Of a DNA stretch of 64,000 nucleotides, positions 1,067 through 56,739 are shown one piece after another; positions within the stretch are counted from its first letter, which is position 1, and each line of letters starts with the position of its first letter. The stretch lies in the IMG/VR virus record IMGVR_UViG_3300035670_000114, positions 1 through 64,000 of that record. One strand, written 5' to 3'. The DNA is from a virus. A program made the position numbers and the translations under genes. The notes beneath the pieces were generated by a model that saw only the letters and a program-made list of their open reading frames with translations, did not search any database and had not been told where the DNA came from.

Positions 1067-1075
1067 GGCAAGCTA
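1067..1075 (+). promoter_or_regulatory. putative late promoter GGCAAGCTA
   Basis: 22 nt before chaperone ATG. Confidence 0.6.
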
Positions 1076-1097
1076 TCTCGCTCAACTCGCCACCCCC

Positions 1098-1790
1098 ATG
1101 TCGAAGCTCCCCTTCGTGGTCCAGCCTCGCCGTCAGCCCATCTTGGAGCAACTCGGCACCGAGGAAACCGGAATCCTCGAAATCAAGCGCCTCGGCTACC
1201 TGACCGTCGGCGAGAAGTCTTTCGTCCAGCAGGTCCAGCAACTGGACGGCGGCACCTCCCAGATCATCACCGTAAGCCGCCAGGTCGCCCGCAAGTTCGC
1301 CCTCGGCATGGACCAGGCCTACTCGCTGGTCCTACAAATCATCAGCGGCTCAACGCCCCAACTTGTCGACGACCTCGACCCCACCCTGACCACCCAAGAG
1401 CGCACGGCCCTCCACGACCAAAACGCCAAAGCCCTCAAGCAACTCGACCTCATCAACCAGATCGAGCAGGAATTCGCCGAAGACCTCACCCGCGCCGTCC
1501 GCGAGATGTCGGCCGGCCAGGTCCGCGAGAAGATCGTTCACGCCTGCTGTCTCCTCAAGTACCGCATCAACACCGACATCACCATCGACGAGGTCGAGAG
1601 GGTCCACCCCGACCTAATCGACGCCCTGGATGCCCTCTTCCGCGACGAGGAGCGCAAGTGCCTCGACGCCTTCTCGCCACCCGACGACACCAGCAACGAC
1701 GAAACCACCTCAACCTCCTCCTTCGAGGAAGCCGAAAAAAAGCCCGCACCCAGAAGGGCTACCCGTTCGAGGACTACTACTGGCGACTGA
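1098..1790 (+). CDS. tail assembly chaperone (G-like)
   Basis: 230 aa, ends just after a slippery A AAA AAG that opens an overlapping -1 frame. Confidence 0.6.
   Translation: MSKLPFVVQPRRQPILEQLGTEETGILEIKRLGYLTVGEKSFVQQVQQLDGGTSQIITVSRQVARKFALGMDQAYSLVLQIISGSTPQLVDDLDPTLTTQERTALHDQNAKALKQLDLINQIEQEFAEDLTRAVREMSAGQVREKIVHACCLLKYRINTDITIDEVERVHPDLIDALDALFRDEERKCLDAFSPPDDTSNDETTSTSSFEEAEKKPAPRRATRSRTTTGD
1736..1742 (+). other. -1 programmed ribosomal frameshift heptamer A AAA AAG
   Basis: GAA AAA AAG in the 1098 frame; the -1 frame continues KKARTQKGYPFEDYYW... to 2365. Confidence 0.75.
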
Positions 1791-2365
1791 AGTTCTACTT
1801 CCCGGGTGACCCCGAGTTCACCCACGAAAACTACTGGCGCCTCCCCTACCCCTACATCTTGGGCGCCATCCTGCGCCTCAACACCCTAGATCGCGAGCGC
1901 CTCCACAACCTGGAGCGTCCAACGGCCTACATCTCCTGGCAGACGGCCGAACTCAACCGCGACCGCAAGAAACAGCGCAAACCCTTCAAACCCGAAGACT
2001 ACTACTTCTACGCCGACCGCGAAAAGCAAAACCTCCCCGACGCCAGGTACGGCGCCGCCGCCCTGGAGCTCATCCGCCTCGGCAGCTTCCCAACCTGGGC
2101 GCTCTTCGTTTATGCCGACCTCAAGAGCCGCGCCGCCGACGCCCTCCCGCCGGAACTCCTCTGCTTCCAGTGCGACGACGCCATCCTGCTAGCACCCTCC
2201 ACCGACGGCGAACACGTCAGCGGCATGCTGATCGCCACCATCTCGGCCTCCGGTGAACGCCGCAAGATGACGTCCCCCTGCGGACGCACCATCGACGTCC
2301 GCATGCCCACCCTCTCCAGCAAGTTCCAGGCCTTCGAGGACGCCGACCTACGCCTCCTCCGCTGA
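1736..2365 (+). CDS. frameshift extension of tail chaperone (GT-like, join 1098..2365)
   Basis: Protein-like only downstream of the slippery site; the upstream part of ORF 749..2365 is out-of-frame shadow. Confidence 0.65.
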   Translation, partial: KKARTQKGYPFEDYYWRLKFYFPGDPEFTHENYWRLPYPYILGAILRLNTLDRERLHNLERPTAYISWQTAELNRDRKKQRKPFKPEDYYFYADREKQNLPDARYGAAALELIRLGSFPTWALFVYADLKSRAADALPPELLCFQCDDAILLAPSTDGEHVSGMLIATISASGERRKMTSPCGRTIDVRMPTLSSKFQAFEDADLRLLR

Positions 2366-2758
2366 GGCCCACTCGTCGCCATCCGGCAGCCTCCCGTTCT
2401 CCAGCCAGAACCGAATCCTGGCTTCGCGCTCCAGCGAGTGAAACGCCTGCGCCCTGAACCACTCAACCCAATCACTCGACCCCTTGCTCTGGTTGTGCTC
2501 CAAGCACGCCGGCAAGCAGTTGTTACTCGTGTCCTCCCCACCCCGGCTCTTCGCCTTCAGGTGATCAATCGTGAGCGACTTATCATCAATCGGCGGCTCT
2601 CCACAAAAGCAACACCGATTCCCCCATGCTGCCTTAATCGCCCGGCGCCAACGCCTTTTTGCCTCTGAGCTCGTTAAGCATTCCATGGCCGCAAGATACT
2701 GGTGATACGACAAGGCCACCCCTTTGGGAGCCGACGTTTCGACCGAACGGTCAATCAT
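2348..2758 (-). CDS. HNH endonuclease
   Basis: CCFCG...TIDH...GG...N...AC..HN..KG; opposite orientation within tail genes. Confidence 0.9.
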   Translation of the reverse strand: MIDRSVETSAPKGVALSYHQYLAAMECLTSSEAKRRWRRAIKAAWGNRCCFCGEPPIDDKSLTIDHLKAKSRGGEDTSNNCLPACLEHNQSKGSSDWVEWFRAQAFHSLEREARIRFWLENGRLPDGDEWASAEEA

Positions 2759-2873
2759 TTCGGGTCAGACCTAGGACCCAATTCCAACCAAAGACCCGAG
2801 CCGTGATGCAACAAAATCTTTGATCGGCATGACCCGCTTGCGGCTGCACCCTTATCTTACCGCAACCGACCAA

Positions 2874-2882
2874 GGAACACTA
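2874..2882 (+). promoter_or_regulatory. putative late promoter GGAACACTA
   Basis: 21 nt before TTG 2904. Confidence 0.6.
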
Positions 2883-2903
2883 CCAACCAGCAGGGAGCCC
2901 ATC

Positions 2904-3341
2904 TTGCCGCAGTCGCACCCCACCACCCCAACCGCCATCTACGACACCCTGCTGGCTGACGCCACCTTCATGGCCCTTGTCGGCACGCGCACCTTCGAGG
3001 CCGGCAACACCACCCTGCCCGCGCTAAGCGTCCACACCCCAGGCGCCGACCTCCCCAAAACCAGCTCCATCTCCGGCCTGGAGGTCCTGATCCACGACGT
3101 GGTCCCCCAACGCCGCCGCAACTACCTAACGGGCCCTGCCGACATCACCTTCCAGTGGAAGGTCTACCTGCTCGCCTGGCCACCCGCCAACGGCTCCACC
3201 ATGACGGCCGCCACCACCCGCGTCCTCGAACTCTTCTCGAACGCCGAATCCATCGAGGTAGGCCCCACACCAACCGGCCTCGGCTCAATCGCCCAATCCC
3301 TAATCCTCATCTCGTCCGATTCCGCCATAACCGCAACCTAA
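2904..3341 (+). CDS. putative tail terminator/completion protein
   Basis: Immediately before tail tube; TTG 2904 follows GGAG and the late motif. Confidence 0.45.
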   Translation: MPQSHPTTPTAIYDTLLADATFMALVGTRTFEAGNTTLPALSVHTPGADLPKTSSISGLEVLIHDVVPQRRRNYLTGPADITFQWKVYLLAWPPANGSTMTAATTRVLELFSNAESIEVGPTPTGLGSIAQSLILISSDSAITAT

Positions 3342-3356
3342 ACCCAATCACAAATC

Positions 3357-3365
3357 GGAAGCCTA
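3357..3365 (+). promoter_or_regulatory. putative late promoter GGAAGCCTA
   Basis: 77 nt before tail tube. Confidence 0.6.
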
Positions 3366-3442: not shown

Positions 3443-4045
3443 ATGGCAAACTTCTCCACCGGCTTCGGCTACGACTTCTACATTGTCCCCCTGGCAGCCG
3501 CCGAAGTGGACACCGCCTTCACGGGCGTAAGCAACGCCGCAGGCTTCATCTCGACGACCACCGTCCAGTCCCCCTCCGCCGTCATCAGCTACGCCAGCGG
3601 CGTCTTCAGCGTGGGCGCCACGGCCCTCGACATGGATGGCACCGACAACCCCTTCCGTCTGTACGGCCTGAACAACGCGGCCCTGGAGACCGACACCAAC
3701 ACCGAGGAAGTGGTCACCTACGACGACGAAACCAAGGGCTTCAACATCACGCTGCCGACCTCCAAAACCTGGAGCTTCTCGCTGTCCGGCGTGGCCGACT
3801 TCAAGGATGCCGGCTACCACGTGCTGCGTCTCACCGAGCAGAACACCGTGGCCGACGCCCTCCGCGTGAAGGTGCTCCGCATCGGCCCCACGGGCACCGA
3901 CGAGGCCATCTACGGCTACGGCACCCTGCAGGGCTACACCGAATCCAACGAAGCCGGCTCGATCGTCTCCTGGGAGGCCACCATCCAAGGCTACGGCCCC
4001 TACCGCATCGACATCGACGCCAACGTCGCCCCTCCGACCCCTTGA
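3443..4045 (+). CDS. major tail tube protein
   Basis: 200 aa, TTP-type beta pattern (KTWSFSLSG, VSWEATIQGYG), followed by terminator, then TMP. Confidence 0.8.
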   Translation: MANFSTGFGYDFYIVPLAAAEVDTAFTGVSNAAGFISTTTVQSPSAVISYASGVFSVGATALDMDGTDNPFRLYGLNNAALETDTNTEEVVTYDDETKGFNITLPTSKTWSFSLSGVADFKDAGYHVLRLTEQNTVADALRVKVLRIGPTGTDEAIYGYGTLQGYTESNEAGSIVSWEATIQGYGPYRIDIDANVAPPTP

Positions 4046-4130: not shown

Positions 4131-4292
4131 ATGCCCTCCACGGCCCGCTCGATCGCCAAGCAAATCATCGCCGAACGCACGGCCGCCGCCAACAGTTGCC
4201 CGCTCTTTTTCGTCGAAGAAATCCGAGTCGACCCCGACACCGGCAAGCTCAAAACAACCATGAAATCTTGCCCACTCAAGACGGAAGACTAA
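4131..4292 (+). CDS. small 53-aa protein between tail tube and TMP (not in ORF track)
   Basis: MPSTARSIAKQ...KSCPLKTED*; phage-like codon usage; GGCATCCATA 19 nt upstream. Confidence 0.5.
   Translation: MPSTARSIAKQIIAERTAAANSCPLFFVEEIRVDPDTGKLKTTMKSCPLKTED
4283..4291 (+). promoter_or_regulatory. putative late promoter GGAAGACTA
   Basis: 22 nt before TMP. Confidence 0.55.
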
Positions 4293-4313: not shown

Positions 4314-7300
4314 GTGGCTACTCCTATTGAATTCGAGGCGGTACTGAATGCGGCTCAGCTTAACAAGTACCTCGCAGACCTACGCGCCAACGTAGAAGGA
4401 ACCGCCAAGGCTCTCAACACCTCCCTTGGCGGCACCGTAACCAAAAGAATCGCCCTCGAAACGGTCGCCGACGAATCCGGCGCCCGCAAGCTCGTCGCCG
4501 TCGAAAAGGAGCGCCTCTCGGTCGTCGACAAAATCATCCAAGCCCAGAAAAAACTCGACAAAACCGAAACCGGCAGCGTCATCAACCTCAGCCAGGCCGT
4601 CAATGAGGCAAAGCAGGCCCGCAACGGGATCGCTCGACTCATTCAAGAAACCGACCAGTACGGCAACCGAGTCACCAAAGTCAACGAGAGGTGGATCGCC
4701 CAAAACCAGCGTGTCCGCGAGCTCTCCCGCGAACTCGACCGAGCCGGCGCCTCCAACTTCTGGCAAAGACTAAAGGCCGACCTCAATATCCAGGGCCTCG
4801 CCAGCGCCTCCAACCAGCTCGTCCAGTTCACCCAAGGTCTCCAGGCCGTCAGCATCGTCGTCGGTCAACTCTCGTCGACCTTCAACCGCTTCGTCAACGA
4901 AGCCGCCGAGATCCAACAATTCGAGCTCGCCTTCAAGGCCATCGGCGCCGGCGCCGGTGCAGCCTTCTCGTCCCTCCGCGACGCCGAACGCATCGCCCTT
5001 GGCCTTGGCACCAACCTCGACACCGTCCAGTCCGGCTTCCAGCAGCTCAGCCCGGTCGTCCTAAACGTCGGCGGCAGTATGAGCGACGTCTCGGCCATCA
5101 CCGAGGCCCTGTCGAGCCGCTTCGCCGCCTTCGGCATCTCTGGCGACCGCGCCCGCCGCGTCATGAACGGCGTCATCCAAGCTTTCGCCAAGGGCAAACT
5201 TCAGGCAGAAGAGCTAACCCAGCAGATCTCCGAAGCCGACCCCGCCTTCAAGACAGACCTCGCCAAGTCGATCGGCAAAACCGTCCAAGAACTGGAGGCC
5301 ATGGTCAAGGCCGGTGAAGTCACCACCGACGTCCTGATCGAGTTCCTGCCTGAACTTTCAAAGGCTGACCTCCTCTTCGGCAAGCTCGGCCCCAGCGCCA
5401 CCTCGGCAGTCGATGCCCTGGCAAGCGGCAACGCCACCATCGACCAGGTCCGCAACAACCTCCAAACCCTAAGCCAGCTCAACCTCCGCAACCTGGCCAC
5501 CATCGGCCAGCCCATCATCGAGGTCTTCCTGCGCGTTCAGGCCGTCATCACCGACTTCCTGACCCGCCTCTCCGAGAGCGGCGCCACCTCCAACATCATC
5601 AACGTCTTCTCCCGCATCTCGCAGTCCGGCGTCCGCCTCCTGGAATCACTTCTCCTGATTGCCGACGGCGCCGTCCGCGTCATCGGCGTCATCACGCCAT
5701 TCATCGACCTCTTCACTCGAATCCCGGGCGTCGTCGAACTCGCCGGCCTCGCCCTAATCGGCAAGCTGCTCGGCCCACTTAAGTCACTGCAATTCGGCTG
5801 GACCGCCCAGATCGCCGCCATCGACAAGTTCCGCACCGCCGCCCGCCGCGCCTTCGCGGGCGTCCAACCGCCTCCCATCAAACCCTTCGACGACTTCCGC
5901 CGCGAGATCGGCCGCCCCGTCACCGCCGGCCGCGTCAACTTTGGCGATGCCCTCAATTCCGCCCAGGCTGCCGCCAACGCGACCACCTCAACCGTCTCTG
6001 CCGCCGAGCAAAAGATCCGCAACCAATACCGCGCCACCTACACCGAATTCGCCAAACTCCAGCAACAAAAGACCGCCGCTGCGGCCGGCGGCACCGCCTT
6101 CCCCGCCAAAGAAGAAGCTCGCCTCCAGCGCCTCCAAGGCCGCGTCCGCGACCTCCAGCTCGAACTGCGCGACTTCTCGTCCCCCCGCAACCAAATCAAC
6201 CTCGGCGCCGACGCCCAGACCCGACAAGTCAAGAACCTAACCAACCAGATCGACCAACTGCAGGCCCGTCTGAAGGTCCAGGTACTCGAATCCCAGAAGG
6301 CTGCCTTGGCTGCAGCGAAGGGTGTCTCCGTGCCCACCCTCGAACGCGCCCCCGTCATCCTAACCGGCGACGAGCTCAACGAGCTGCGCCGAATCAACGC
6401 CGAAATCGACACCCTCAGAGACAAGCTGACCGCCGTGCCGGCCTCAAGTCTTCTCGGCAACCAACTCGACGACGCCGACGCCCTTAACCGAAAGATCACC
6501 GAGCTAACCGAAAAGCGCGACCAGCTCGTTGGCGCCACCACCGCTGCCGAAGACAAGATCCGCAAGCAGTATCGCGCCACCTACACCGAATTCGCCAAGC
6601 TACAACAACAAAAAGCAGACGCGGCAACCAGCGGCGTCGCCTTCTCGGACAGGGAAGAGGCCCGCCTCCAGCGTCTGCAACGCCGCACCACCAACCTCCA
6701 GTCCCAACTGCGCGACCTCTTCACGGGTGGCGCCGAGTCTGCCGCTCGCTTCGGCGACAGCCTGGAGGGCTCCGTGTCGGCCTCCTACGACCGCGCCATC
6801 GCCGCATCACAGGCCTACGCCAGCACCGTCTCCAGCGGCGCCAGCAAGACCCAAGTCGCGACCAGCCTCAACGCCGCGCTAGCCGCCAGTAGCGAATACT
6901 ACACCGAAACCCTAGGCCTCGCCAACCAGCGCCTGAAGGAGTACAACGCCTCCTCCACCGCCGTCACTCAGCGCATCGGCGAACTGACCCAGCTCCAGGG
7001 CCGCCTCTCCGCCCAGCTTGCCAGCACCAGTTACGGCAGCGCCGACGCCGACCGCCTCCGCACCCAACTCAAGGGCGTCACGCAGGAAATCTCCACCCTC
7101 CAGTCCTCCCAGAATAACCTCCAGTCCTCGATCCAGGGCACCAACCAGACCATCTCCGACATCAACGAGAGGCTCTCCCAGAACCAGCGAGCCGCCGCCA
7201 CTGCTGCAGCCAGCACCAACCGCCTCGGCAGAGCCGCGACTCGCGTTGGCTCTGCTATCGACGGAGCCGTTGGCCTCGCCGGCAAGGGCATCCAGGGCAT

Positions 7301-10300
7301 CGCCGCCGCCCTTGGCCCCATCGGTATCGCCCTGCTAGCCATCGGCGCCGCCACCAAGCTTTATTCCGACGGCGTCGCCCGCGCCAATGCAGCCAGCAAA
7401 GAATTCAAAGATCAAACCGAGGCCCTCACCCGCAGCCTCGCCGAGCTCAAAGGCGCCCAATCCACCATCGCCCAAGCACCCCCAGAGAGTGCCCTTGAAA
7501 GCTTCTACGCCAAGATCGCCCTTGGCGCAGCCCAGGTCGGCGATGGTGTCATCGGCCTTGGCGAAAGAATAATCTCATTCTACAACCAAGTCACGTCCGC
7601 AATTGACGGAGCCATCGAGAAAACTGGTCCATTGGCCAACGTTTTACGAGTCGTTACTTCTCCTCTAATAACATTTGGCCTCTTTAACGTATTCGCCGGC
7701 GGCGACACTGAAGCCGCATCCCTGACCCGAGAAGTCGAATCCGTCGAAAAGCAGATCAAAAAAACAATCGTCCAAGCTAACCTACTCATCAACGCCCTGT
7801 CCCAGGACATCACTCCCGAGGGCATAAAAGAAGGTGCAGACGAACGAGTCAATGCCGCCTTCGGTACCCTCGACACTGCCATCACCGCAATCCAAAAGAA
7901 GATTGACGACTACAACCTATCTATCAAGAGCAACGAGTCCGCCATCAAGACACTTGGCGACGAATACACCGCAACCGCCGCCAAGCTAAAAGAGCTGGAA
8001 GCAGCCCGCGAAGCCGGCACCCTTCAACCTGAAGACGCTCCGAAGATCGACCAATACAAGCGAAGACTCCAATCCCTCTCAGAAGAGCAAGAAAAGACTC
8101 GCGCCAAAAACGTCATTCTCTCAAAAAGTGCCAACGAATTAAGCACAGTCTACGAAGCCCTGTCCAAGCGCTATGACGCCTTGGCCCAGGCCGCCGGCCG
8201 CGTCCAAACCAAAAACAAGGACCAACTCAACAGCCTCGGCCAGCTCGAAGAGCGTTACAAGTCCCTCAAGGACAGTGTTTCCGAACTTGACTTAACTACC
8301 CCTAAAGGCCGCTCCGAACTCAGACGTATCACAGAGGAGGCTGCCGAGGTTTCTCTCAAGATCCGCGAAATCAAGGAGTCCGCCGATCTGATCGAAAAAA
8401 TCAAAATCGAAGCGCAAGTCGACGAAGGCATCGAACGCGGCGAAATCGCTTCGTCCATCTCGAACCTTCAGTATCAGATTCAGTTGCTGGAGGGGATTAG
8501 CGCAACCGTAGACATCAACTCTCCAGAGCTCCCTGACCTAATCGCAAGGCTAACCAGGGCAAAACGCGACCTCGACGATCTGAACGGCCGTAGAGCGCAG
8601 ATCACCCTACAAGTTGTGCAGCAAGGCATCTCCAGCGGAGAGATCCCCCGGACCATCGCCAACCTCGAAGAACTGCAGCGTCTCCTATCGGAAAGACAAA
8701 AGGCAATCGACATTGACACGACTCAAGGTCGGAACGAACTAAACCTCTTGACCCAAGAGGCCGCCGAATTGTCGGTACAACTTCGTGCCATTAAAGAGCT
8801 GGCATCCTTCTCCGAAGCGATTGCAATTTCGATAGAAATAGACAAACAGATTACCAGCGGAAAGCTGGCCGAGTCAATATCCAACATAGAGACAAAGGTC
8901 CAGTCCCTCGAAAGCGCCAGCGCGAGTGTTGACATCAAGTCGCCTGAACTGCCTCGGATCATCTCCGAGCTGACCAAGGCCGGCGATCGGATTGATCAGC
9001 TCAATGGACGAAAGGCCCAGGTCACCGTCGAAATTCTACAACAAGGCATCTCGACCGGCGAAATCTCGAACACGGTTAGCAACCTCGAACGTATACAACA
9101 AGGACTGCAGCAGCAGCAGCGAACGGTCGACATCTACTCCCCGCAAGCCGATACAATTGCACAACAAATAGAGCAAAACAGGCGCCAGCAGGAATTCGCC
9201 ACTAAGTCCAACGACGAAATCGAGCGCGAACTACAAAGAGAAAGAGCCTCCCAGAAGCAGCAAGACCTGCAGATGGAGCACGATAGACAGCGCCAAATCA
9301 TCCAGGAGCGCAAGCAGGCGCTGCAGGATGAACTCAACAGATCCAAGGAAATCGCCGACGCCAGGGTCAAGGAGCTCCAACAGCTCACCTTCTCCGAAAG
9401 GGAGCTAGCAAGGCTGCGCGTCCAGGATCTACAAAAACAGGCTCAAGGCGGTGGACGCAGAGGCCTTGAGGCTCGCGCCCAGCTAGAAAGACTTGCCAGG
9501 GACGAGCAGATCGCCAGGATAAAAGAAGAGCAAGACCGCAAGGAGGCCCAGATCCAACAGAAGATCAGGCAAGAAGAAGCAATCGAACGCCAACTCGAAA
9601 AAACTTTCCGCGAGCAAATGCTTGCCATCCAGCAAGAGATGCTCAAACTCGAAAGGCAGAAGGCAGGACAGCAGATTACCGCCGCCGAGCAAACCCTGGA
9701 AGAAAGAAGGAAAGCAGAGGAGGCATCCAAGCAGGCCACATCCGCCGACGAGCAACGCCTTGCCAACCTGCGCGAGCAGGCCGGCCAGTGGGCTCGACAG
9801 GCAGCCAGCGCCAAGGAAACGGCCTCCATCTCTAAGCAGATTGTGGACGACACCAGTCGCTACCCGCAGGCGCTGTCGAACGGAGCCGACCAGGCGGATC
9901 GCTTCGCCGAATCCCTCAAGTCCTCGGCCGGAAGCGCCGAAATGATCGCGAAATACCTCAGAAGCGTCGCCAGCCTCAACGGCCAATCCGTCAACATCAA
10001 CGTCAACCAGGTCCCCGCCCGCTTCCTCGGCGGCCCAGTCTCTGCCGGCCAGACCTACCAGGTCAACGAAATCGGCACCGAGGGCTTTCTCTCCTCTGGC
10101 GGCGCCCTACGCGAAATCTCGCGCCCCCGCAACTCCCTCTGGCGTGCCCCCAGTTCCGGTACCGTGATCCCCGCCGACATCTGGAGCGCTATCAAGGCCC
10201 CCGACAACGCCATCTCCGTGAACCCCTCCCCCCTGCGCAACTCCAGCAAGGCCATCAGCAACAGCCGCGTCGAGCAGGCCGTCAAGGTAGCCATCGCCCG

Positions 10301-10481
10301 CTCGTCTTCCGACAGCCAGGCCATCCGCGAGCTCGCCTCCGTCCAGGTCCACCAATCCCAACAGATCGGCAAACTAAGCCGCGCAGTCACCGACCTCGCC
10401 CACAAAGACTGGAACGTCAACGTGGGCCTCAACAGCAGGGACGACGCCGTCTACCTCCGCGCCCTCAATAGCCGACTCTGA
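4314..10481 (+). CDS. tail tape measure protein
   Basis: 2055 aa, helical/coiled-coil, QAFAKGKLQAEEL..Q tape-measure domain, C-terminal RFLGGPV..G..Y.VNEIGTEGF. Confidence 0.95.
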   Translation: MATPIEFEAVLNAAQLNKYLADLRANVEGTAKALNTSLGGTVTKRIALETVADESGARKLVAVEKERLSVVDKIIQAQKKLDKTETGSVINLSQAVNEAKQARNGIARLIQETDQYGNRVTKVNERWIAQNQRVRELSRELDRAGASNFWQRLKADLNIQGLASASNQLVQFTQGLQAVSIVVGQLSSTFNRFVNEAAEIQQFELAFKAIGAGAGAAFSSLRDAERIALGLGTNLDTVQSGFQQLSPVVLNVGGSMSDVSAITEALSSRFAAFGISGDRARRVMNGVIQAFAKGKLQAEELTQQISEADPAFKTDLAKSIGKTVQELEAMVKAGEVTTDVLIEFLPELSKADLLFGKLGPSATSAVDALASGNATIDQVRNNLQTLSQLNLRNLATIGQPIIEVFLRVQAVITDFLTRLSESGATSNIINVFSRISQSGVRLLESLLLIADGAVRVIGVITPFIDLFTRIPGVVELAGLALIGKLLGPLKSLQFGWTAQIAAIDKFRTAARRAFAGVQPPPIKPFDDFRREIGRPVTAGRVNFGDALNSAQAAANATTSTVSAAEQKIRNQYRATYTEFAKLQQQKTAAAAGGTAFPAKEEARLQRLQGRVRDLQLELRDFSSPRNQINLGADAQTRQVKNLTNQIDQLQARLKVQVLESQKAALAAAKGVSVPTLERAPVILTGDELNELRRINAEIDTLRDKLTAVPASSLLGNQLDDADALNRKITELTEKRDQLVGATTAAEDKIRKQYRATYTEFAKLQQQKADAATSGVAFSDREEARLQRLQRRTTNLQSQLRDLFTGGAESAARFGDSLEGSVSASYDRAIAASQAYASTVSSGASKTQVATSLNAALAASSEYYTETLGLANQRLKEYNASSTAVTQRIGELTQLQGRLSAQLASTSYGSADADRLRTQLKGVTQEISTLQSSQNNLQSSIQGTNQTISDINERLSQNQRAAATAAASTNRLGRAATRVGSAIDGAVGLAGKGIQGIAAALGPIGIALLAIGAATKLYSDGVARANAASKEFKDQTEALTRSLAELKGAQSTIAQAPPESALESFYAKIALGAAQVGDGVIGLGERIISFYNQVTSAIDGAIEKTGPLANVLRVVTSPLITFGLFNVFAGGDTEAASLTREVESVEKQIKKTIVQANLLINALSQDITPEGIKEGADERVNAAFGTLDTAITAIQKKIDDYNLSIKSNESAIKTLGDEYTATAAKLKELEAAREAGTLQPEDAPKIDQYKRRLQSLSEEQEKTRAKNVILSKSANELSTVYEALSKRYDALAQAAGRVQTKNKDQLNSLGQLEERYKSLKDSVSELDLTTPKGRSELRRITEEAAEVSLKIREIKESADLIEKIKIEAQVDEGIERGEIASSISNLQYQIQLLEGISATVDINSPELPDLIARLTRAKRDLDDLNGRRAQITLQVVQQGISSGEIPRTIANLEELQRLLSERQKAIDIDTTQGRNELNLLTQEAAELSVQLRAIKELASFSEAIAISIEIDKQITSGKLAESISNIETKVQSLESASASVDIKSPELPRIISELTKAGDRIDQLNGRKAQVTVEILQQGISTGEISNTVSNLERIQQGLQQQQRTVDIYSPQADTIAQQIEQNRRQQEFATKSNDEIERELQRERASQKQQDLQMEHDRQRQIIQERKQALQDELNRSKEIADARVKELQQLTFSERELARLRVQDLQKQAQGGGRRGLEARAQLERLARDEQIARIKEEQDRKEAQIQQKIRQEEAIERQLEKTFREQMLAIQQEMLKLERQKAGQQITAAEQTLEERRKAEEASKQATSADEQRLANLREQAGQWARQAASAKETASISKQIVDDTSRYPQALSNGADQADRFAESLKSSAGSAEMIAKYLRSVASLNGQSVNINVNQVPARFLGGPVSAGQTYQVNEIGTEGFLSSGGALREISRPRNSLWRAPSSGTVIPADIWSAIKAPDNAISVNPSPLRNSSKAISNSRVEQAVKVAIARSSSDSQAIRELASVQVHQSQQIGKLSRAVTDLAHKDWNVNVGLNSRDDAVYLRALNSRL
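6001..6721 (+). repeat. TMP internal repeat, about 60 aa x2, 543 nt period
   Basis: AAEQKIRNQYRATYTEFAKLQQQK vs AAEDKIRKQYRATYTEFAKLQQQK. Confidence 0.9.
8284..9140 (+). repeat. TMP internal repeat, about 140 aa x2
   Basis: VDINSPELP...LNGRRAQ...QQGISSGEI vs VDIKSPELP...LNGRKAQ...QQGISTGEI. Confidence 0.85.
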
Positions 10482-13272: not shown

Positions 13273-14627
13273 CCGACGTCATTACCACCGTCGTCCAGGT
13301 TTCGATCGCCGCCGGCCAGGCGAAGATCTACAACGGCCGCCTGCGCGTCCCGCCTCGACCGATCTCGGTCCTCCCCCTCCCTCCGAAGGTCCAGCCCAAC
13401 CAGGTCCAGGTTCCTGCAGCGGTTATCTCGACGGCAACCCCCAGCGCCGACGTCCTGCAGTCCTGCGTCCTCCTCAAGCCAATCCCCACGCCGACCCCAG
13501 GGCTCGACCCCATCGTCGACGAGGGAATCATTACGCCGGCCGCCCCGGGGGTCACCTACGCCTCACTAGAGACAATCACTGCGATTGTTGACACGTCCCC
13601 CAACCAGCTAATCGGCTGCATCAACGACGCAAGCGAGAACACCCAAAACCGTCTGAACCTCCTCTTCCCGTCCGCCATCGAAGGTGACGGCGTCGTCGAC
13701 CGCACCAGCACCGACATCTACGTCCTCAGAAGCTCCGTCTGGACGAACGTGGGCCCCACGCCAGGCCCTACCATCGTCTCGACCAACCTGGTGCCACCCT
13801 GGAACCAGATCGTCCCCCTCTACATCACCGTAAGGACGGCCACCTCAATCACCTCGATCGACTACTCGCTGGATCTCCAGACGATCGTCCCGAGCATCAC
13901 AACCCGGGGCTCCATCTTCGTCGAAAGTCGCACCGCAACCGTCGCTCGCTGTCCCTCGATCGGCCTCGATCTCGCTGTCTTCGAGCCCCGAGTCGCCATC
14001 GGCGGCGCCGCCATCTCGCCTGCGGCCCCCGTCCCCCTCACCACCCCCGCGCCCTCCATCAAGGCGGCCTCGATCGCCTACCCGGCGGCCTTCCCCATCG
14101 TCCTATCGACGCACGTCCCGATCGTACCCCGCCTGTCGACGGTCACCACCCCCGACGCACCCGCCGACATCTCGATCTCGACCCTGCCGCCATCCATCAC
14201 CGGCGGCAAGTCCTTCAACATTCCGCCTGCAGTCGTCGCGACCACGCCCCCCGTTCCCGAGATCTCGGCCGCCATCGTCGTCAACGTCCCCCTCACGACA
14301 ATCACCCCGTCGGCCGTCACCCCCCTCGTCGGCGTCAGCGCCACCACCAAGCCTCCAGCCGCTCAAACCACAACGACACCCATCACCCCAGTCCTCCAGA
14401 CGGGCGCCGCCGCCTACCCGCCGGCCGTCCAGATCACCACGACCCCCCGCTTACCCGACGCCCCGCGTCCCGCCACCAAGGTCGAGGTACCCCTCATCGT
14501 GGTCACCACAACTGCTCTCCCGCCCTCGTCCATGGTTGTCGACGAGCTCGCCAACTACTACCGCTCCTGGCCATTCCAGAACTACGACTGGCTGGCGGAC
14601 ATCATGCCCGAAGGCTGGGCGAACTAG
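13269..14627 (+). CDS. Pro/Thr-rich tail protein
   Basis: 452 aa with repeated P/T/V-rich segments; tail context. Confidence 0.5.
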   Translation: MTDVITTVVQVSIAAGQAKIYNGRLRVPPRPISVLPLPPKVQPNQVQVPAAVISTATPSADVLQSCVLLKPIPTPTPGLDPIVDEGIITPAAPGVTYASLETITAIVDTSPNQLIGCINDASENTQNRLNLLFPSAIEGDGVVDRTSTDIYVLRSSVWTNVGPTPGPTIVSTNLVPPWNQIVPLYITVRTATSITSIDYSLDLQTIVPSITTRGSIFVESRTATVARCPSIGLDLAVFEPRVAIGGAAISPAAPVPLTTPAPSIKAASIAYPAAFPIVLSTHVPIVPRLSTVTTPDAPADISISTLPPSITGGKSFNIPPAVVATTPPVPEISAAIVVNVPLTTITPSAVTPLVGVSATTKPPAAQTTTTPITPVLQTGAAAYPPAVQITTTPRLPDAPRPATKVEVPLIVVTTTALPPSSMVVDELANYYRSWPFQNYDWLADIMPEGWAN

Positions 14628-14635
14628 GCACACTA
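14627..14635 (+). promoter_or_regulatory. putative late promoter GGCACACTA
   Basis: 19 nt before ATG. Confidence 0.6.
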
Positions 14636-16148: not shown

Positions 16149-16157
16149 GGCATCCTA
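16149..16157 (+). promoter_or_regulatory. putative late promoter GGCATCCTA
   Basis: 20 nt before ATG. Confidence 0.6.
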
Positions 16158-17977: not shown

Positions 17978-18019
17978 AATTCGTGCCAAAGGTATTATAT
18001 GGACAGAATCACCTCACCC

Positions 18020-18136
18020 ATGATCCAACCCCTCTCCCAATCCGCCAAAGCCCAAACCCAAGCCAACCGCTACGCCTTCCTCGTCCAAGCCAGCAACAAG
18101 CGCCTCCTCGAACAGCTCCTAAAGAAGGTTAAGTAG
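18020..18136 (+). CDS. 38-aa helical microprotein (not in ORF track)
   Basis: MIQPLSQSAKAQTQANRY...KKVK*; late-type motif 20 nt upstream. Confidence 0.45.
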   Translation: MIQPLSQSAKAQTQANRYAFLVQASNKRLLEQLLKKVK

Positions 18137-18144
18137 GTATCCTA
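18136..18144 (+). promoter_or_regulatory. putative late promoter GGTATCCTA
   Basis: 30 nt before scaffold. Confidence 0.6.
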
Positions 18145-18174: not shown

Positions 18175-18939
18175 ATGGCCACCGACAACCAATCCCAGCA
18201 GCCCTCCGTGACGGACGGCCCCTCCGACGAAGCCCTCAACCAAGGCGGCGCAGGCAGCGGCGAGAACACCGAGCCCACCGGAGACCTGGTCCCCAAGTCC
18301 GAAATCGACAACCTCCTCAAGGCCCTCAAGGCTGAACGGGAGTCCCGCAAACAATTCGAGCGCGACGCCCGCGAGAAGGCCGCCCAGCTCGAAAAGTTCG
18401 CCCAGATCAACCCCGACGAATACCGCCGCCTCCAGGAAGAGGCCGCCATCGCCGAGCGCGAGCGCCTGGCAGCCGAGGAGCGCACCTCCCTCCTTGAGGA
18501 GAAGTACGGCGCCCAGACCGCCGAAGCCAAGCGCCTCGCCGAGCAGCGCGAAGCCGAACTGCGCGAGTTCCGCAAGCGCTATGCCCTCGAAAAGGTCTTC
18601 TTCGAGGCCGGCGGCCGAACCGACGCCGCCGAAGGCGTCTCCTTCTTCGACATGCTGGCCGACCGCCTGGGCCCCAGCTTCCGCCTGGAAGCCAACGGCT
18701 CCATCACCGTAATCGACTCCAACGGCGATCCCGTGCTCGACAGCGACACCGGCAAGCGCATCGCCCCCGTTGACTACCTCTCGAAGTTCAAGACCCACAC
18801 CATCTACGGCACCTTCTTCAAGGGCGCCCGTGGTTCTGGCGCCGGCATCGGCTTTGGCGGCACCGACGCCAACGGCCTGACCGCCGAAAACTTCTCCGAA
18901 CTGCCGACCGACGAGCAGTTCGAGCAAGCCTTCGGCTAA
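18175..18939 (+). CDS. capsid scaffolding protein
   Basis: LKALKAERESRK coiled coil, C-terminal GSGAG; directly upstream of capsid. Confidence 0.8.
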   Translation: MATDNQSQQPSVTDGPSDEALNQGGAGSGENTEPTGDLVPKSEIDNLLKALKAERESRKQFERDAREKAAQLEKFAQINPDEYRRLQEEAAIAERERLAAEERTSLLEEKYGAQTAEAKRLAEQREAELREFRKRYALEKVFFEAGGRTDAAEGVSFFDMLADRLGPSFRLEANGSITVIDSNGDPVLDSDTGKRIAPVDYLSKFKTHTIYGTFFKGARGSGAGIGFGGTDANGLTAENFSELPTDEQFEQAFG

Positions 18940-19020: not shown

Positions 19021-19029
19021 GGTATCCTA
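19021..19029 (+). promoter_or_regulatory. putative late promoter GGTATCCTA
   Basis: After terminator, 125 nt before capsid. Confidence 0.65.
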
Positions 19030-19154
19030 TCGACGAGGAGATGCCCTGAAGTCCCAGGTCGAGATGACCGGATCAGACGGGTGTCGGGCCACGGATGACG
19101 CGAAGTCTACCTGGTCATTCACCCACTCTTTCCCGTTTACTCGGACATCCTATC

Positions 19155-20180: not shown

Positions 20181-20189
20181 GGAATACTA
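20181..20189 (+). promoter_or_regulatory. putative late promoter GGAATACTA
   Basis: After terminator, 22 nt before ATG. Confidence 0.65.
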
Positions 20190-24636: not shown

Positions 24637-24734
24637 CACCTCCTAGTGTCCCCGTCTAAGGCGACCACCTGACGCCAAGGAACCCTAGCTTGCGCCCGCC
24701 GCGTCGTGCGCCAAGCTTCCCTCGCCTCATACCG

Positions 24735-26222: not shown

Positions 26223-26231
26223 GGCAACCTA
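26223..26231 (+). promoter_or_regulatory. putative late promoter GGCAACCTA
   Basis: 57 nt before 26289. Confidence 0.6.
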
Positions 26232-26745: not shown

Positions 26746-26754
26746 GGAAACCTA
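26746..26754 (+). promoter_or_regulatory. putative late promoter GGAAACCTA
   Basis: Directly after terminator, 22 nt before ATG. Confidence 0.65.
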
Positions 26755-27717: not shown

Positions 27718-27726
27718 GGCAGCCTA
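27718..27726 (+). promoter_or_regulatory. putative late promoter GGCAGCCTA
   Basis: 22 nt before ATG. Confidence 0.6.
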
Positions 27727-41451: not shown

Positions 41452-41504
41452 CCGCGCAGGCGGCTTCTGTCGGCACAATAATGTGCCGAAACTCGCTGTG
41501 CCAG

Positions 41505-43656: not shown

Positions 43657-44295
43657 ATGAGACGGATCACGAAATTCCAGCTCACACCCGAGCAACGGGA
43701 TCTCGCGGAGCGCAACATGGATCTAGCCAGGCACCAAGCCTGGATCTACAAGCGCAAAACCGGCATCGAGTACAAGGTGCTCGAAAGCGAAGCCTTCCTG
43801 GGCCTTTGCCAGGCTGCCGCCAAGTACGACATCAATCGCCTGCACGAGCAAACTGGCCAACCTCTCAAGTTCTCGTCCCTGGCGGTCCCCTATATCAGGG
43901 GCAGTATCCTGCATTACATCAGGGACAAGACGTACGCCATGCGTCTGACCTACGAAACCAGGGACATCTGGACGCGAGGCAAGCGCTACCTATATGCCGG
44001 CTTCACCGACCTGGAGGTCTGTGAGCTCCTTGGCATCGAGCTGTCGAAGTGGCAGGAGGCCAAGTCTGCCTGCTCGGGTCCTCCCCTTGAGCTCGCCGAC
44101 CACGCCACGCCCTCCGAGCCCCTTGAGCCCGACGAGGTCGACAACCTGACCATCTTCCGTCAGGATGCCGCCGAACTCCTCTCCAAGCTGACGCCAGCCA
44201 CGCGGCAGCGCCTGGATCGCTTCATGGAGGCCCGGGCCAGTGACGTGCCCAAGACCGTCATCAACGAGTTGCGGCAACTGGTCTTCGGGGGCTAG
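43657..44295 (+). CDS. SigF/SigB-type sigma factor lacking region 4.2
   Basis: GLCQAAAKYD, FSSLAVPYIRGSILHYIRDK, region 3 helix; ends without the region 4 HTH. Confidence 0.85.
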   Translation: MRRITKFQLTPEQRDLAERNMDLARHQAWIYKRKTGIEYKVLESEAFLGLCQAAAKYDINRLHEQTGQPLKFSSLAVPYIRGSILHYIRDKTYAMRLTYETRDIWTRGKRYLYAGFTDLEVCELLGIELSKWQEAKSACSGPPLELADHATPSEPLEPDEVDNLTIFRQDAAELLSKLTPATRQRLDRFMEARASDVPKTVINELRQLVFGG

Positions 44296-46118: not shown

Positions 46119-46297
46119 GTCCTACCAGGACGCCGTCGACAGCCTGACGATGTTCGCGGCATCGCATCCCGAGTGGCGCCGCCCACTGGAGGACATCGTC
46201 CTCTACGTCGAAACTCTTCGACCTGGCGCAATCCTTCACGAACCAGGCCTCTAGCAAAGGCACCCTATGCTACTGTGCTCGGGTGCCGGATTCTTTT

Positions 46298-50339: not shown

Positions 50340-50348
50340 GGCAGACTA
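50340..50348 (+). promoter_or_regulatory. putative late promoter GGCAGACTA
   Basis: 32 nt before the isolated portal gene. Confidence 0.6.
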
Positions 50349-50380: not shown

Positions 50381-51844
50381 ATGGACATCACGCATCCGAC
50401 GAACGATCCGGCGCTGGTCAGTTACCACCGCCCAGAGCTGATGTCCCTGTTGAGTGGACTTGAGCTTGCCCTCGATTGCTGGAGCCTGCTAAGCACCGCC
50501 TCCCGTGGCTCTGAAAAGAGCAAGTATCTCCCCAAGGAGCCAGGCGAGCCCACCTCTGCCTACAAGAGCCGCCTTCACCGCTCGACCTACACGCCAATCT
50601 TCCGCGATAGCGTCAGGGCGTACGCCGGCCTCTTGAGCCGGTTTCAACTCATCGACCCTCCACCAAGTCTACTGGAGTCACAGCACGACGTCGACCTGCG
50701 CGGATCGAGTATCCACGGCTTCTCAAGTCGATGCGATGAACTCGCCATCAGGGATGCCGGCGTCTACGTGATGGTCGACATGCCCCCGGCTGGCGGCACC
50801 AACAACTTCGTCGACGAGCTCGCCGAAGGCCGCAGGCCCTATTGCATGATTGTGGAGCGCAAGGACGTCATTAACTGGTCGCTTCGCTACGTCAACGGCA
50901 GGGAGGTCCTCGAAAGGGTGACGGTCCGGCAACTGCGTGCCATCTCCAACTCTGACGGCTACGGCTCAACGCTTGAACCCGTCTACCTCGTAATGAGGCC
51001 CGGGTCCGTCGAGGTCTTCCGCGTCGAGAAGAGCCAGTCGGGCTGGAGAAATGTCTCCCTTGGCCCACCGATTCAAACCAGTCTGGACTACATTCCGATT
51101 CGCTGGTACGGCCTATCGACGTCGTCCTTTGCCCAGGGCGAGCTCGCCATGAACGGCCTCGCAGAGATGAGCATCCAGCACTTTCAGATGCGATCTGACC
51201 TGCAGGAGCTGCTGCACAAGTGCGCCATGCCGGTCCCCGTCCGAAAGGGCGCTCCGGTTGGTTCTGATGGGCGGTCTGCGCCAATGATTATTGGCTCCAA
51301 CAGCGGCATGGATCTACCCGAAAACGGCGAGTTCCTCTTTGCCGAGCCAACCGGTCGTAGTATCGAGCGCCATCAAGCCGAAATCGCCCACCTTGAGGCC
51401 TTGATGGACAGGTCTGGTCTCAACTTCCTCTACGGCGCCAACGTCAAGACGGCAACCGAGGCATCCCTTCGCGCATCCCAGATCAGCAGTCAGGTGAACT
51501 CGCTGATCAGAAACAAGGTCGCCACCATGACATGGCTTTTCCGCGTCTGGGCCGAATACGCTGGTGAGACCGATAAGTTGACGTCGGAGTCGGGCATCCA
51601 GGTCAACGACTCGCTCATCAACCGACCCATCGACCCCAGTGGTATCGCCCAAATGATCAACCTCCACAAAGCTAGGCTATCGAGCAAGAGGGTCGTGCTT
51701 GAGGAGCTGCAGCGCGGCGGCGTGCTTGATCCCGACATGAATATCGACGACGAACTCAAGAGAATTGCCAAGGAGGAGCGCGAAGAGTCCTCGCCGCCAG
51801 GCGTCGCGCCTCAGCTCCAAGACCCCTCTACCGTGAGGCCGTAA
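50381..51844 (+). CDS. portal protein (DUF4055-like)
   Basis: YLPKEPGE...Y..RL, DVDLRG, RRPY, INW, KTATEA, EELQRGGVL. Confidence 0.85.
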   Translation: MDITHPTNDPALVSYHRPELMSLLSGLELALDCWSLLSTASRGSEKSKYLPKEPGEPTSAYKSRLHRSTYTPIFRDSVRAYAGLLSRFQLIDPPPSLLESQHDVDLRGSSIHGFSSRCDELAIRDAGVYVMVDMPPAGGTNNFVDELAEGRRPYCMIVERKDVINWSLRYVNGREVLERVTVRQLRAISNSDGYGSTLEPVYLVMRPGSVEVFRVEKSQSGWRNVSLGPPIQTSLDYIPIRWYGLSTSSFAQGELAMNGLAEMSIQHFQMRSDLQELLHKCAMPVPVRKGAPVGSDGRSAPMIIGSNSGMDLPENGEFLFAEPTGRSIERHQAEIAHLEALMDRSGLNFLYGANVKTATEASLRASQISSQVNSLIRNKVATMTWLFRVWAEYAGETDKLTSESGIQVNDSLINRPIDPSGIAQMINLHKARLSSKRVVLEELQRGGVLDPDMNIDDELKRIAKEEREESSPPGVAPQLQDPSTVRP

Positions 51845-53249: not shown

Positions 53250-53366
53250 AGCGGCAGACTACTTCTGCTATAATCTAGCAACGAGTCTCATTTGAGCGAG
53301 GCTTCCGATCATTTCCGGCGGTTGACGTTGACCGGCTTCAGCGTCGTCGAGTTCTCTACCTCCCTC

Positions 53367-55157: not shown

Positions 55158-55195
55158 CGCTGCTTTCCTGATGCTTTCCACAGTCTAGCCGTCGA

Positions 55196-55342: not shown

Positions 55343-55389
55343 CGCAGTCACCCGGCTTCTACTATGATTCCCGATAAGCGGCTTTTATC

Positions 55390-55611
55390 ATGATTCCAAC
55401 TGACGACCAGGATTCCCTCGACCATGCGATGCTGATGCTTTTCACGGCGAGGTGGTCAATACCGACCGCAGCGGCGCACCTCAGCATGAAAGCAACCGAG
55501 GAATCCTGGAGCCAACTCAAGGCACTATTCGCCGAATACTGCAAAATTCACGGCACGACCTACAAAGAAGAGCACCCCGGGAAGGATTCAAACCTTCGAC
55601 CATCGGATTAG
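55390..55611 (+). CDS. hypothetical protein (3' end antisense to tRNA)
   Basis: LFTARWSIPTAA.HL.M pattern. Confidence 0.45.
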   Translation: MIPTDDQDSLDHAMLMLFTARWSIPTAAAHLSMKATEESWSQLKALFAEYCKIHGTTYKEEHPGKDSNLRPSD

Positions 55612-55645
55612 AAGTCCGTTGCTCTGTTCGCTGAGCTACCGGGGC
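55573..55645 (-). tRNA. tRNA-Arg(TCT)
   Basis: GCCCCGG TA GCTC AGCGAACA GAGC A ACGGA CTTCTAA TCCGA TGGTC GAAGG TTTGAAT CCTTC CCGGGGT G; no encoded CCA. Confidence 0.9.
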
Positions 55646-55671
55646 GATTGCCTCTTGGCCATCAGATTCTA

Positions 55672-56205
55672 CTACATTTGGCCGGGAAGCGTGTACACCA
55701 GCCTTTGCTTGATGAAGTCCAGGCTGACCGGAGCAAACCCATGGTTTTCGACGCAGGCATTAAAGTACCTGCCGTCTGGTACGCCATCAGCCAAGACCTG
55801 ACCGCGATGTAGGTGGCCATGCACGTTTGCCCGATAACTTGGCCTTGCGAGGCAGTCGGGATGGACTGGAAAGTGCGAAAAGACGAGGCCATCCCTGTAG
55901 AAGCATCCACGCACGTCCTCGAAATACTTGCAATACTCCTTCAGTTCGTAGATGTCATGATTACCCCTCGCCAAAACCTTTCGGCCATTCAATCTCGACA
56001 GTATATCCAATCCCTTGCGCGAAAACGATACGTCGCCGAGATGGTAAACTCGATCGCGTGGAGACACAACCGAGTTCCACTGCTCGACGATAAATTCATT
56101 CATCTCTTCGACCGAATCAAATGGTCTTAGCTTCAAATTGTTGTCCTTAGCTTCCACAATTCGCGTGTGATGGAAGTGTGTGTCTGATGTGACGAACGTC
56201 GTCAT
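55672..56205 (-). CDS. calcineurin-like metallophosphoesterase
   Basis: SDTHF, HLGD, GNHD, HGHLH. Confidence 0.92.
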   Translation of the reverse strand: MTTFVTSDTHFHHTRIVEAKDNNLKLRPFDSVEEMNEFIVEQWNSVVSPRDRVYHLGDVSFSRKGLDILSRLNGRKVLARGNHDIYELKEYCKYFEDVRGCFYRDGLVFSHFPVHPDCLARPSYRANVHGHLHRGQVLADGVPDGRYFNACVENHGFAPVSLDFIKQRLVYTLPGQM

Positions 56206-56258
56206 GGTTGGCTTGCGAGTAAGGTCGAGTGTAGCACGCCGTCCAGTGCGGCGGCCTC

Positions 56259-56495
56259 TTGTCTTACCGCTTGCGCGGTGTTACCATCGCAAGACACGCC
56301 GCGAAGACCTTGATCAGCGAAGCGCCGATTCAAGCACTGCCCAAACTGTACGATTACGTCATTCACGGCCTAATCGACGGCAAGTCGGCAACAGGCTTAC
56401 TGGTTGACCACAGCAGGGATGCCGCCATACTGACAGCCAACGAGCTCTGGCCCGACATGCAGATCGTTCGAGTCGAACTCGAAGGCGACTGGTGA
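56259..56495 (+). CDS. hypothetical protein
   Basis: Start uncertain. Confidence 0.4.
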   Translation: MSYRLRGVTIARHAAKTLISEAPIQALPKLYDYVIHGLIDGKSATGLLVDHSRDAAILTANELWPDMQIVRVELEGDW

Positions 56496-56502
56496 CCCGG
56501 AC

Positions 56503-56688
56503 TCAATTCCCTCCGGCCTCCTCTCGCCCCATGGCCTCAAGCATGCGCTTCATCGCTAGCCTATCGGCCATGGCGTCCTCCTTCCAGTGCTCCGGCAGGT
56601 CAAGCGACTCCCAGGCCTTCTTTCTCGCCAGGTCCCGCCTCTGTTGAACAGAAAGCCGATTCGCCTTGTATCCGGTTTTCGCCGTCAC
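56503..56688 (-). CDS. small basic hypothetical protein
   Basis: Late-type motif 20 nt upstream. Confidence 0.5.
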   Translation of the reverse strand: MTAKTGYKANRLSVQQRRDLARKKAWESLDLPEHWKEDAMADRLAMKRMLEAMGREEAGGN

Positions 56689-56739
56689 GCGAGCTGGTCG
56701 TCTCGGCTTATGATTCCATCTCTACTCGTTTGTACGCAC

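Follow-up and report, generated by a model that had tools for sequence, protein, structure and literature searches.

In bacteriophage T4, late transcription depends on gp55, a phage protein of the sigma family that is essentially confined to region 2 and requires both gp33 and the gp45 clamp. It guides the host core RNA polymerase to late promoters made of a single box, TATAAATA, devoid of a -35 element, and activation goes through clamp-binding tails carried by gp55 and gp33. In phage phiEco32, which grows on another host, the phage sigma factor gp36, a member of another sigma lineage, also uses single-element middle and late promoters located around -10, with a different recognition word. 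Here, we describe a nine-base motif, GGHANNMTA, with the core form GGHANNCTA, that precedes the late genes of an uncultured virus. The stretch under study (hereafter, the window) corresponds to the first 64,000 nucleotides of the IMG/VR record IMGVR_UViG_3300035670_000114, a single contig of 86,866 bp with about 60% G+C. Its most likely reader is a shortened sigma factor of the virus itself, encoded at positions 43657-44295.

The closest described promoter is found in cyanobacteria. In Nostoc punctiforme, 93 SigJ-dependent promoters served to define the J-Box, GGGaAtacT, and the transcription start of gvpA was mapped; its -35 element is weak or dispensable and reading by SigF has also been suggested (Gonzalez et al., 2019, PMC6495340). 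Promoters of this type are characterized by a start about 10 bp downstream of the core centre and by their dependence on a group 3 sigma factor. How such G-containing elements can be read is illustrated by the open complex of Staphylococcus aureus SigB (PDB 8X6G). In this structure, R100 bonds -14G, R97 contacts -13G, R110 of sigma3 bonds -15G, the -11A is flipped into a pocket, and the -10 element GGGWAW is partly read as duplex DNA (PMC11156646).

In phages of cyanobacteria, two sigma factors were named in the genome of Prochlorococcus phage P-SS2. Sigma-70-type promoters were suggested as targets of the group 2 factor, the group 3 factor was proposed to control “a particular regulon” for which no target sequence was named, and the promoter search made with BPROM covered sigma-70 promoters only (Sullivan et al., 2009, PMC2784084). 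Within the searchable literature on S-CBS2, the S-CRES phages, cyanosiphovirus sigma factors and late promoters, a body that mostly leaves subscription journals outside, we found no description of the motif or of the missing region 4. Hence, although the strategy of combining a phage sigma factor with one-box late promoters, as well as J-Box-type promoters themselves, is known, the pairing of this sigma factor with this motif is new to the searchable literature.

A conserved motif upstream of late genes

From its short sigma factor, which shares 46-49% protein identity with those of Synechococcus phages S-CBS2 and S-CRES1-3 and 46% with that of Prochlorococcus phage P-SS2, the window phage is assigned to the S-CBS2/P-SS2-like cyanosiphoviruses. 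These relatives provide the decisive evidence, because their gene starts were annotated independently. In S-CBS2, 19 of the 43 plus-strand matches lie 18-26 nt before annotated starts, where 0.48 would be expected (p=4e-26). The same interval holds 21 of the 34 matches of S-CRES3 (p=4e-31). In the first 50 kb of P-SS2, 7 of 10 plus-strand matches stand 20-28 nt before annotated starts, including those of the portal gene and of a head morphogenesis gene, and over 100 kb the core form occurs 17 times on the plus strand vs. once on the minus strand. The positional enrichment that the original prediction proposed to look for in cyanosiphoviruses with the same sigma factor is therefore present in all three.

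Uncultured relatives were represented by 80 IMG/VR contigs encoding the short sigma factor (1.29 Mb, 42-60% G+C). They carry 433 matches on the plus strand vs. 148 on the minus strand, and 21% of the plus-strand matches are located 18-25 nt before the start of an open reading frame (ORF), compared with 4% for a reversed-pattern control and 0% on the minus strand. The exact motif precedes terS in 54 of 58 distinct contigs and the portal gene in all 43 examined. Ahead of other genes it is rare (SSB, 0/45; primase, 3/65; terL, 5/59; RpoD-like sigma factor, 3/42), and early genes almost entirely lack it. These counts support the idea that the motif marks late genes across the whole phage family.

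Particular arrangements are also kept between phages. Upstream of the capsid gene, the motif and a leader of about 125 nt are found in the window phage, in S-CBS2 and, with one mismatch, in S-CRES3. This leader (19021-19157 in the window; L001:30830-30966; L004:6140-6287) retains its length and the blocks GGGTGTC and ATTCACC in the three phages, the capsid promoters being otherwise diverged. In S-CRES3, two copies of the motif stand back-to-back (64004/64009) in a divergent gap of 64 nt.

In the window itself, GGHANNMTA is matched 33 times, as against 17.3+-3.4 in dinucleotide shuffles, and none of 100 such shuffles reaches 33. Over the whole 86.9-kb genome, the core form occurs 21 times on the plus strand (7.9+-3.0 expected) and twice on the minus strand (6.2 expected). 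A weight matrix built solely from S-CBS2 and S-CRES3 sites was also applied to this genome, at a threshold of 10 bits. It yields 17 plus-strand matches, vs. 4.0+-2.3 expected, and two on the minus strand. The plus-strand matrix matches are confined to 2.8-53.3 kb; the exact pattern adds one plus-strand match at 63323 and none in 64-87 kb. The motif announced as genome-wide is thus real and enriched, but late-module-wide in its extent, since no plus-strand site other than 63323 lies past 54 kb. Chance or base composition was considered as the origin of the motif and is rejected in view of the shuffles, the matrix test, the strand bias and the counts at orthologous sites.

All 21 sites of the original prediction are found where it placed them. 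Each of its gaps ends on ATG, GTG or TTG, opening a frame of 38-2055 codons, and twelve gaps measure 19-24 nt. Eight of the 21 gene starts do not correspond to the first in-frame start, and a codon-usage gene caller missed atypical genes and served as a rough guide only, so that we relied on the annotated relatives instead. The functions attributed to the targets (tail, scaffold, capsid, lysis, TerS and portal) proved correct when checked. By contrast, the proposal that almost every structural gene has a promoter of its own goes too far. In the 0-30 kb region, about 15-16 of some 35 plus-strand late genes carry a copy, that is, roughly one promoter for every two genes.

The consensus drawn from a 75-site logo is a-T-a-G-G-[C/A]-A-t-[A/C]-C-T-A-r. 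In the upstream flank between -60 and -14, counted from the motif start and covering the place where a -35 box would fall, no position reaches 0.13 bits of information, in agreement with the initial observation that no -35 is shared; conservation ends at about -11. In the 19-22 nt that lead up to the start codon, conservation is limited to two purine positions, +5 and +6 after the motif; at +5, 56 of 75 sites have a purine (p=5e-6). Purines at this place are compatible with a transcription start there. These 19-22 nucleotides are too few to accommodate another -10 element as well, so that a promoter role for the motif, if it has one, would have to be that of the core promoter itself. Logos drawn for the 80 uncultured loci were anchored on crude first-start ORFs and are noisy; they still show C, T and A at motif positions 7-9 (read as -8 to -6), in short-tail and long-tail clades alike. 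A third G is disfavoured, being found in 1 of 45 and 2 of 41 sites.

Taken as a whole, these features support a -10-type promoter role for the motif, with no -35 element involved, and GG-H-A-N-N-C-T-A, about 20 bases ahead of virion and packaging genes, is very probably a one-box late promoter. The T4-type precedent invoked in the original prediction remains valid in that, by computational analysis, the element is a single box without -35; the closest promoter is, however, the cyanobacterial J-Box and not TATAAATA. Indeed, the phage consensus overlays the J-Box base for base, with G's upstream of an A-t-a-c-T core (A-N3-T), a nearly invariant A and T four bases apart, a weak -35 and, presumably, a group 3 reader. 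The two elements differ in that the phage word has two G's instead of three and an invariant A added after the T. It is also located about 20 nt from start codons, and its presumed reader possesses only a remnant of region 4. The motif further resembles what we take to be the consensus of Bacillus subtilis SigF and SigG (CATnnTA-like), for which the literature consulted gives no explicit strings.

The short sigma factor and its family

The short sigma gene (43657-44295, plus strand; 212 residues) starts 2 nt past the terL stop codon. Its product matches PHROG 36098, “RNA polymerase sigma factor” (4e-62). Among NCBIfam models, the best match is the cyanobacterial SigF PRK07408 (4.4e-17, profile positions 31-155 of 258), and SigBFG also matches (1.9e-8), all NCBIfam scores being far under the curated whole-protein cut-offs; Pfam Sigma70_r2 scores 16.5 bits, under its cut-off of 24. 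Region 2, responsible for core binding and -10 recognition, is nevertheless detectable by profile. The best solved structure for the family profile is S. aureus SigB (8x6g_H, E=5.7e-7), aligned through position 136, i.e., regions 2 to 3.1. The NCBIfam matches assign the protein to group 3, and its SigF/SigB-type character in regions 2-3 is as originally proposed.

The AlphaFold model that had been suggested as a check (pLDDT 83) contains sigma2, sigma3 (helices 99-113, 118-125 and 129-139), a disordered 3.2 linker (142-153) within which a CSGPPLEL motif is located, and a C-terminal domain of three confident helices (165-176, 180-192 and 199-210). Region 3 and the linker are therefore supported by both the profile alignment and the model. 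In contrast, a region 4 with a helix-turn-helix able to read a -35 is not recognized: with Pfam models, neither Sigma70_r4 nor r4_2 gives a match at E up to 10 in the window sigma factor or in 42 of 42 C-termini of the family. When the C-terminal domain was folded alone, Foldseek returned no match below E=4.6, and alignment of the family with the RpoD-like sigma factor of the same phage (see below) by hhalign covered region 2 only, with nothing on the C-terminus. Exhaustive structural comparison of this domain places at the top the region 4 domains of WhiG, SigB, SigL, SigH, AlgU and SigC, at low Z values of 4.2-4.6, a weak resemblance. We interpret the modelled domain as a vestigial region 4 that has one helix fewer than usual and lacks conserved basic residues; it might dock on the flap of the beta subunit and is unlikely to read a -35 element. 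“Region-4-less”, as the protein had been called, is thus roughly right in functional terms, with no Pfam region 4, but not anatomically, since a three-helix remnant is kept.

The short length is a family trait rather than a truncation, since the more than 300 metagenomic relatives have nearly all 205-244 residues, with a family length of about 213. Regions 2 to 3.1 and the CSGPPLEL motif are nearly invariant, and the last 50 residues are poorly conserved. P-SS2 ORF003 and S-CBS2 gp077, annotated as group 3 or SigF-like, are members of this family (46-49% identity), and their genes likewise follow terL. In S-CBS2, the 3' end of the gp077 gene (L025:10463-10612) stops at ...SRVPQGRC, whereas its closest relatives (e.g., L021) run on into a long acidic tail; this early stop could reflect a frameshift, a sequencing error or the recent disappearance of the tail.

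Comparison with SigB gives a possible structural basis for the recognition of the two G's. In the profile alignment, R100 and R97 of SigB correspond to R89 and H86, both invariant in the family, and R110 corresponds to H or Y at position 99. The arginine that reads -14G is thus kept throughout the phage family, and the missing third arginine is in keeping with a motif of two G's instead of three. As in SigB, the G's would be read as duplex by sigma2 and sigma3 and the -11A would be flipped. The differences concern the rest of the promoter: SigB depends on a -35 element (GTTTWW) recognized by its intact region 4, and -7T is not conserved in GGGWAW. The phage motif lacks a -35 and shows a strong C-T-A at positions -8 to -6.

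With T4 gp55, the window protein has in common that a phage protein of the sigma family would guide the host core to one-box late promoters. It differs in not being limited to region 2, since sigma3, the 3.2 linker and a small C-terminal domain are also present, in belonging to another sequence family (PHROG 36098), and in ending without a clamp-binding tail (...RQLVFGG); no ORF of this genome convincingly ends in Q-x-x-L-F. Such a tail-like sequence is, however, found in relatives. Among 65 distinct C-termini of the family, 33 have a conserved acidic tail whose very last residues are Q-x-[S/N]-L-F (Q-x-x-[LV]-F by pattern), a likeness at the level of sequence matching. All the tailed forms are long, about 240 residues, and include the S-CRES3 type (gp21, L003:12572-13306). 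The tail corresponds to the C-terminal 30 codons of the sigma gene and was seen in L012-L017, L020, L021, L027, L033 and others, for instance at L014:9891-10154. The beta-clamp-binding consensus is Q-L-x-L-F, usually located at C-termini (PMC4549789). Tentatively, one may imagine a large family of aquatic siphoviruses whose late genes are run by a SigF/SigJ-derived sigma factor without a -35-reading helix, acting on J-Box-like one-box promoters and, in about half of the distinct C-termini, coupled to replication through a Q-x-S-L-F tail bound to the host sliding clamp. Such a system would be convergent with T4 gp45-gp55/gp33; in its entirety, we regard this picture as possible rather than probable. 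Use of the clamp for the late genes of phage Mu has reportedly been described in a 2025 preprint.

Reading of the motif and alternative explanations

The short sigma factor is not the only one encoded by the phage. An RpoD-like sigma factor (35017-35853, plus strand; 278 residues) is full length, is located among early genes and adjoins a putative ssb gene. It has a region 4, because the cyanobacterial RpoD profile aligns through its last positions. The two genes occupy fixed places, next to ssb and after terL, respectively, in S-CBS2, S-CRES3 and P-SS2, and the pair is also present in nearly all IMG/VR loci with enough flank. A second class of boxes, TGCTANNNT, is enriched in the genome (23 vs. 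11.7 expected) and lies mostly at 33-62 kb, in the early/replication region, with boxes spread over 33119-62504 (e.g., 34959, 39054, 46268, 53266 and 58061). This word has the shape of an extended -10 element for group 1 and group 2 sigma factors. The system can therefore not be called minimal, as it had been, since a second sigma factor and a second class of boxes exist. The simplest scheme would attribute the extended -10 class to the host SigA and/or the RpoD-like sigma factor, and the GG class to the short one. With respect to the TGCTANNNT words, P-SS2 (L005+L006) has both CTA-containing words strongly depleted, TGCTANNNT occurring 3 and 2 times where about 20 are expected per strand, and S-CBS3 (L007) has zero copies of either, which suggests a general avoidance of words containing CTA or TAG in these two genomes.

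A promoter role of the motif is well supported by the comparative evidence. As the most probable explanation, which we favour with fair though not full confidence, the motif would be the entire late promoter, of J-Box type, read by the host core RNA polymerase associated with the short phage sigma factor (43657-44295). GG-H-A-N-N-C-T-A would then be an extended -10 element with G-14, G-13, A-11 and T-7 in register. As in SigB, the GG would be touched in double-stranded form by sigma2 and sigma3, which would also hold the flipped A-11. With the -35-reading helix lost, a -35 box would be neither needed nor conserved. Transcription would start about 5-7 nt past the last A, giving leaders of only about 12-16 nt. 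Because the sigma gene is carried by a terS-terL-sigma unit that is itself headed by a motif, positive feedback would result, and the first molecules of sigma factor might come, more speculatively, from leaky read-through from an upstream early or middle unit.

Several observations weigh against this explanation. The two phage sigma factors co-occur in nearly every relative with enough flank, so that co-occurrence cannot separate them and we infer, rather than observe, which of the two reads the motif. S-CBS3, which has the RpoD-like sigma factor only, contains no match to the motif, a weak negative control because TGCTANNNT is also wholly absent from that genome. No motif lies directly upstream of the short sigma gene, in the window phage or in any of 66 relatives, and its first expression is left unexplained. 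As the C-terminal domain weakly resembles region 4, some contact with upstream DNA is conceivable. Finally, a J-Box-like element could be read by a host SigF or SigJ, and the tight spacing to start codons would also suit a signal acting in RNA.

The involvement of a host sigma factor of group 3 (SigF/SigJ type), the short phage protein having another task or boosting the host factor, draws on the closeness of the motif to a host-type promoter that is read by SigJ and probably by SigF, and on the presence of a group 3 sigma factor in the host of P-SS2 (Sullivan et al., 2009, PMC2784084). Yet, of the sequenced Prochlorococcus strains, only two were reported to have such factors (Sullivan et al., 2009, PMC2784084), whereas the motif accompanies the phage sigma factor in four isolates and in 80 contigs of widely differing composition. 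Moreover, the phage motif avoids the third G, which is absolute in the J-Box, in agreement with the replacement of R110 by another residue in the phage protein. We consider a host reader unlikely for these reasons. It is still less probable that the RpoD-like phage sigma factor or the host SigA reads the motif, with the terS-terL-sigma unit being a middle unit and the short sigma factor reading another signal. The placement of the RpoD-like gene among early genes, its constant co-occurrence with the short one, and the location of the short sigma gene inside a motif-headed unit, as would be expected for the next step of a cascade, would suit such an order of events. However, a full-length factor with region 4 is hard to match with sites devoid of a -35, a GG upstream of the -10 is a group 3 trait, and the early region is marked by its own TGCTANNNT class. 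In addition, a third motif before virion genes was not noticed, although no dedicated de novo search was made.

The two other explanations do not involve the motif as a promoter. A signal acting in RNA, either a processing site or a translation signal at a fixed distance before the starts of polycistronic late messages, would account for the sharp 19-22 nt spacing and would agree with most leaders having no Shine-Dalgarno sequence and with the annotation of an RNase III-like gene in S-CRES3. On the other hand, copies are found right behind terminator-like hairpins and at the head of divergent units, where a new transcript must begin, and the capsid copy stands 125 nt from the start codon in three phages. 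The distance between the conserved A and T is that of -11 and -7, purines occur where the start would fall, and the depletion of the minus strand is what avoidance of promoters would predict. Hence, an RNA-level signal is given little credence. The binding of a late activator, the real promoter being elsewhere, finds a parallel in phage late activators, which are common, such as RinA upstream of terS in staphylococcal phages; but the site is asymmetric and single, and 19-22 unconserved bases before the start codon are too few for a -10 element, a discriminator and a leader. This last explanation appears very improbable.

Individual sites, gene content and significance

Along the left part of the window, all sites being on the plus strand, the motif GGCAAGCTA (1067-1075) stands 22 nt before an ATG at 1098. 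The copy at 2874-2882 is 21 nt before a TTG at 2904, for which earlier in-frame starts are present. Two copies concern the tail: that at 3357-3365, located 77 nt before the major tail protein gene (3443-4045), and that at 4283-4291, located 22 nt before the tape-measure gene (4314-10481), a position that is also filled in S-CBS2 and S-CRES3. The best-scoring copy of the matrix search (10368-10376, 17.5 bits), absent from the earlier list, lies within the 3' end of the tape-measure gene, 104 nt before a gene at 10481. Further on, the motif at 14627-14635 begins on the final base of the upstream stop codon, 19 nt before an ATG at 14655, and that at 16149-16157 precedes an ATG at 16178 by 20 nt. 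Around the head genes, GGTATTATA (17991-17999) is 20 nt before a 38-codon ORF (18020-18136), the copy at 18136-18144 is 30 nt before the scaffold gene (18175-18939), and that at 19021-19029, preceded by a terminator-like hairpin, is separated by 125 nt from the major head gene (19155-20066).

Downstream of the head genes, copies are found 22 nt before an ATG at 20212 (20181-20189), 47 nt before an ATG at 24735 or 2 nt before a TTG at 24690 (24679-24687), and 57 nt before an ATG at 26289 (26223-26231). The site at 26746-26754 lies 8 nt after a GC-rich hairpin with a T-run and 22 nt before an ATG at 26777; that at 27718-27726 is 22 nt before an ATG at 27749. The copy at 28061-28069 stands ahead of the lysis unit, composed of an ORF (28113-28544) and then the endolysin gene (28541-29668). 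In the packaging region, the copy at 41472-41480, 7 nt after a terminator-like hairpin, heads terS (41505), terL, the sigma gene and the primase gene, at the position filled in 54 of 58 relatives. The isolated portal gene (50381-51844) has its copy at 50340-50348, 32 nt upstream, corresponding to the position occupied in all 43 relatives.

Two plus-strand copies are doubtful. The one at 46259-46267 is directly followed by a second-class box, TGCTACTGT, at 46268, and the one at 53253-53261 has TGCTATAAT 4 nt downstream (53266), which may be the real promoter. As both abut TGCTANNNT-type boxes, they may not be late promoters. On the minus strand, the word GGAATCATA occurs identically at 55363-55371, where it falls under the 10-bit threshold of the matrix, and at 56709-56717, after a hairpin with a T-run, each time 20 nt before a small ORF. 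Together with those ahead of 19021, 26746 and 41472, the hairpin preceding 56717 on the minus strand bears out the initial remark that several copies follow terminators.

Apart from the genes mentioned above, which with terS, terL, portal, major tail, scaffold, major head and endolysin form a siphovirus set, the window encodes a primase, a B12-type ribonucleotide reductase and a dCTP deaminase. A megablast search with 12 kb against the phage collection returned no phage that is close at the nucleotide level. The GC skew of the plus strand is strongly negative, at -0.31 at the left end, and decays steadily to about -0.02 at 60-64 kb. An open frame of 577 codons at 39117-40850 contains a ThyX (Thy1) domain in residues 400-560 only; its leading 400 residues are unexplained and could be a fusion, an insertion or the result of a wrong start.

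Thus, the group 3 sigma factor of P-SS2-like cyanosiphoviruses, annotated since 2009 without a target, now has a concrete candidate promoter, conserved across isolates and at least 80 uncultured contigs, with start sites predicted to within a few bases. Cultured systems exist for such phages, with S-CBS2 on Synechococcus CB0204, the S-CRES phages, and P-SS2 on Prochlorococcus MIT9313. The protein itself provides a natural example of a sigma factor that keeps sigma2 and sigma3 while region 4 is reduced to a stub. For the phages, the shared motif would account for the co-regulation of packaging, portal and virion genes that are scattered along the genome. Finally, the clamp-binding-like tail seen in relatives, if real, would represent a second independent case of replication-coupled late transcription.

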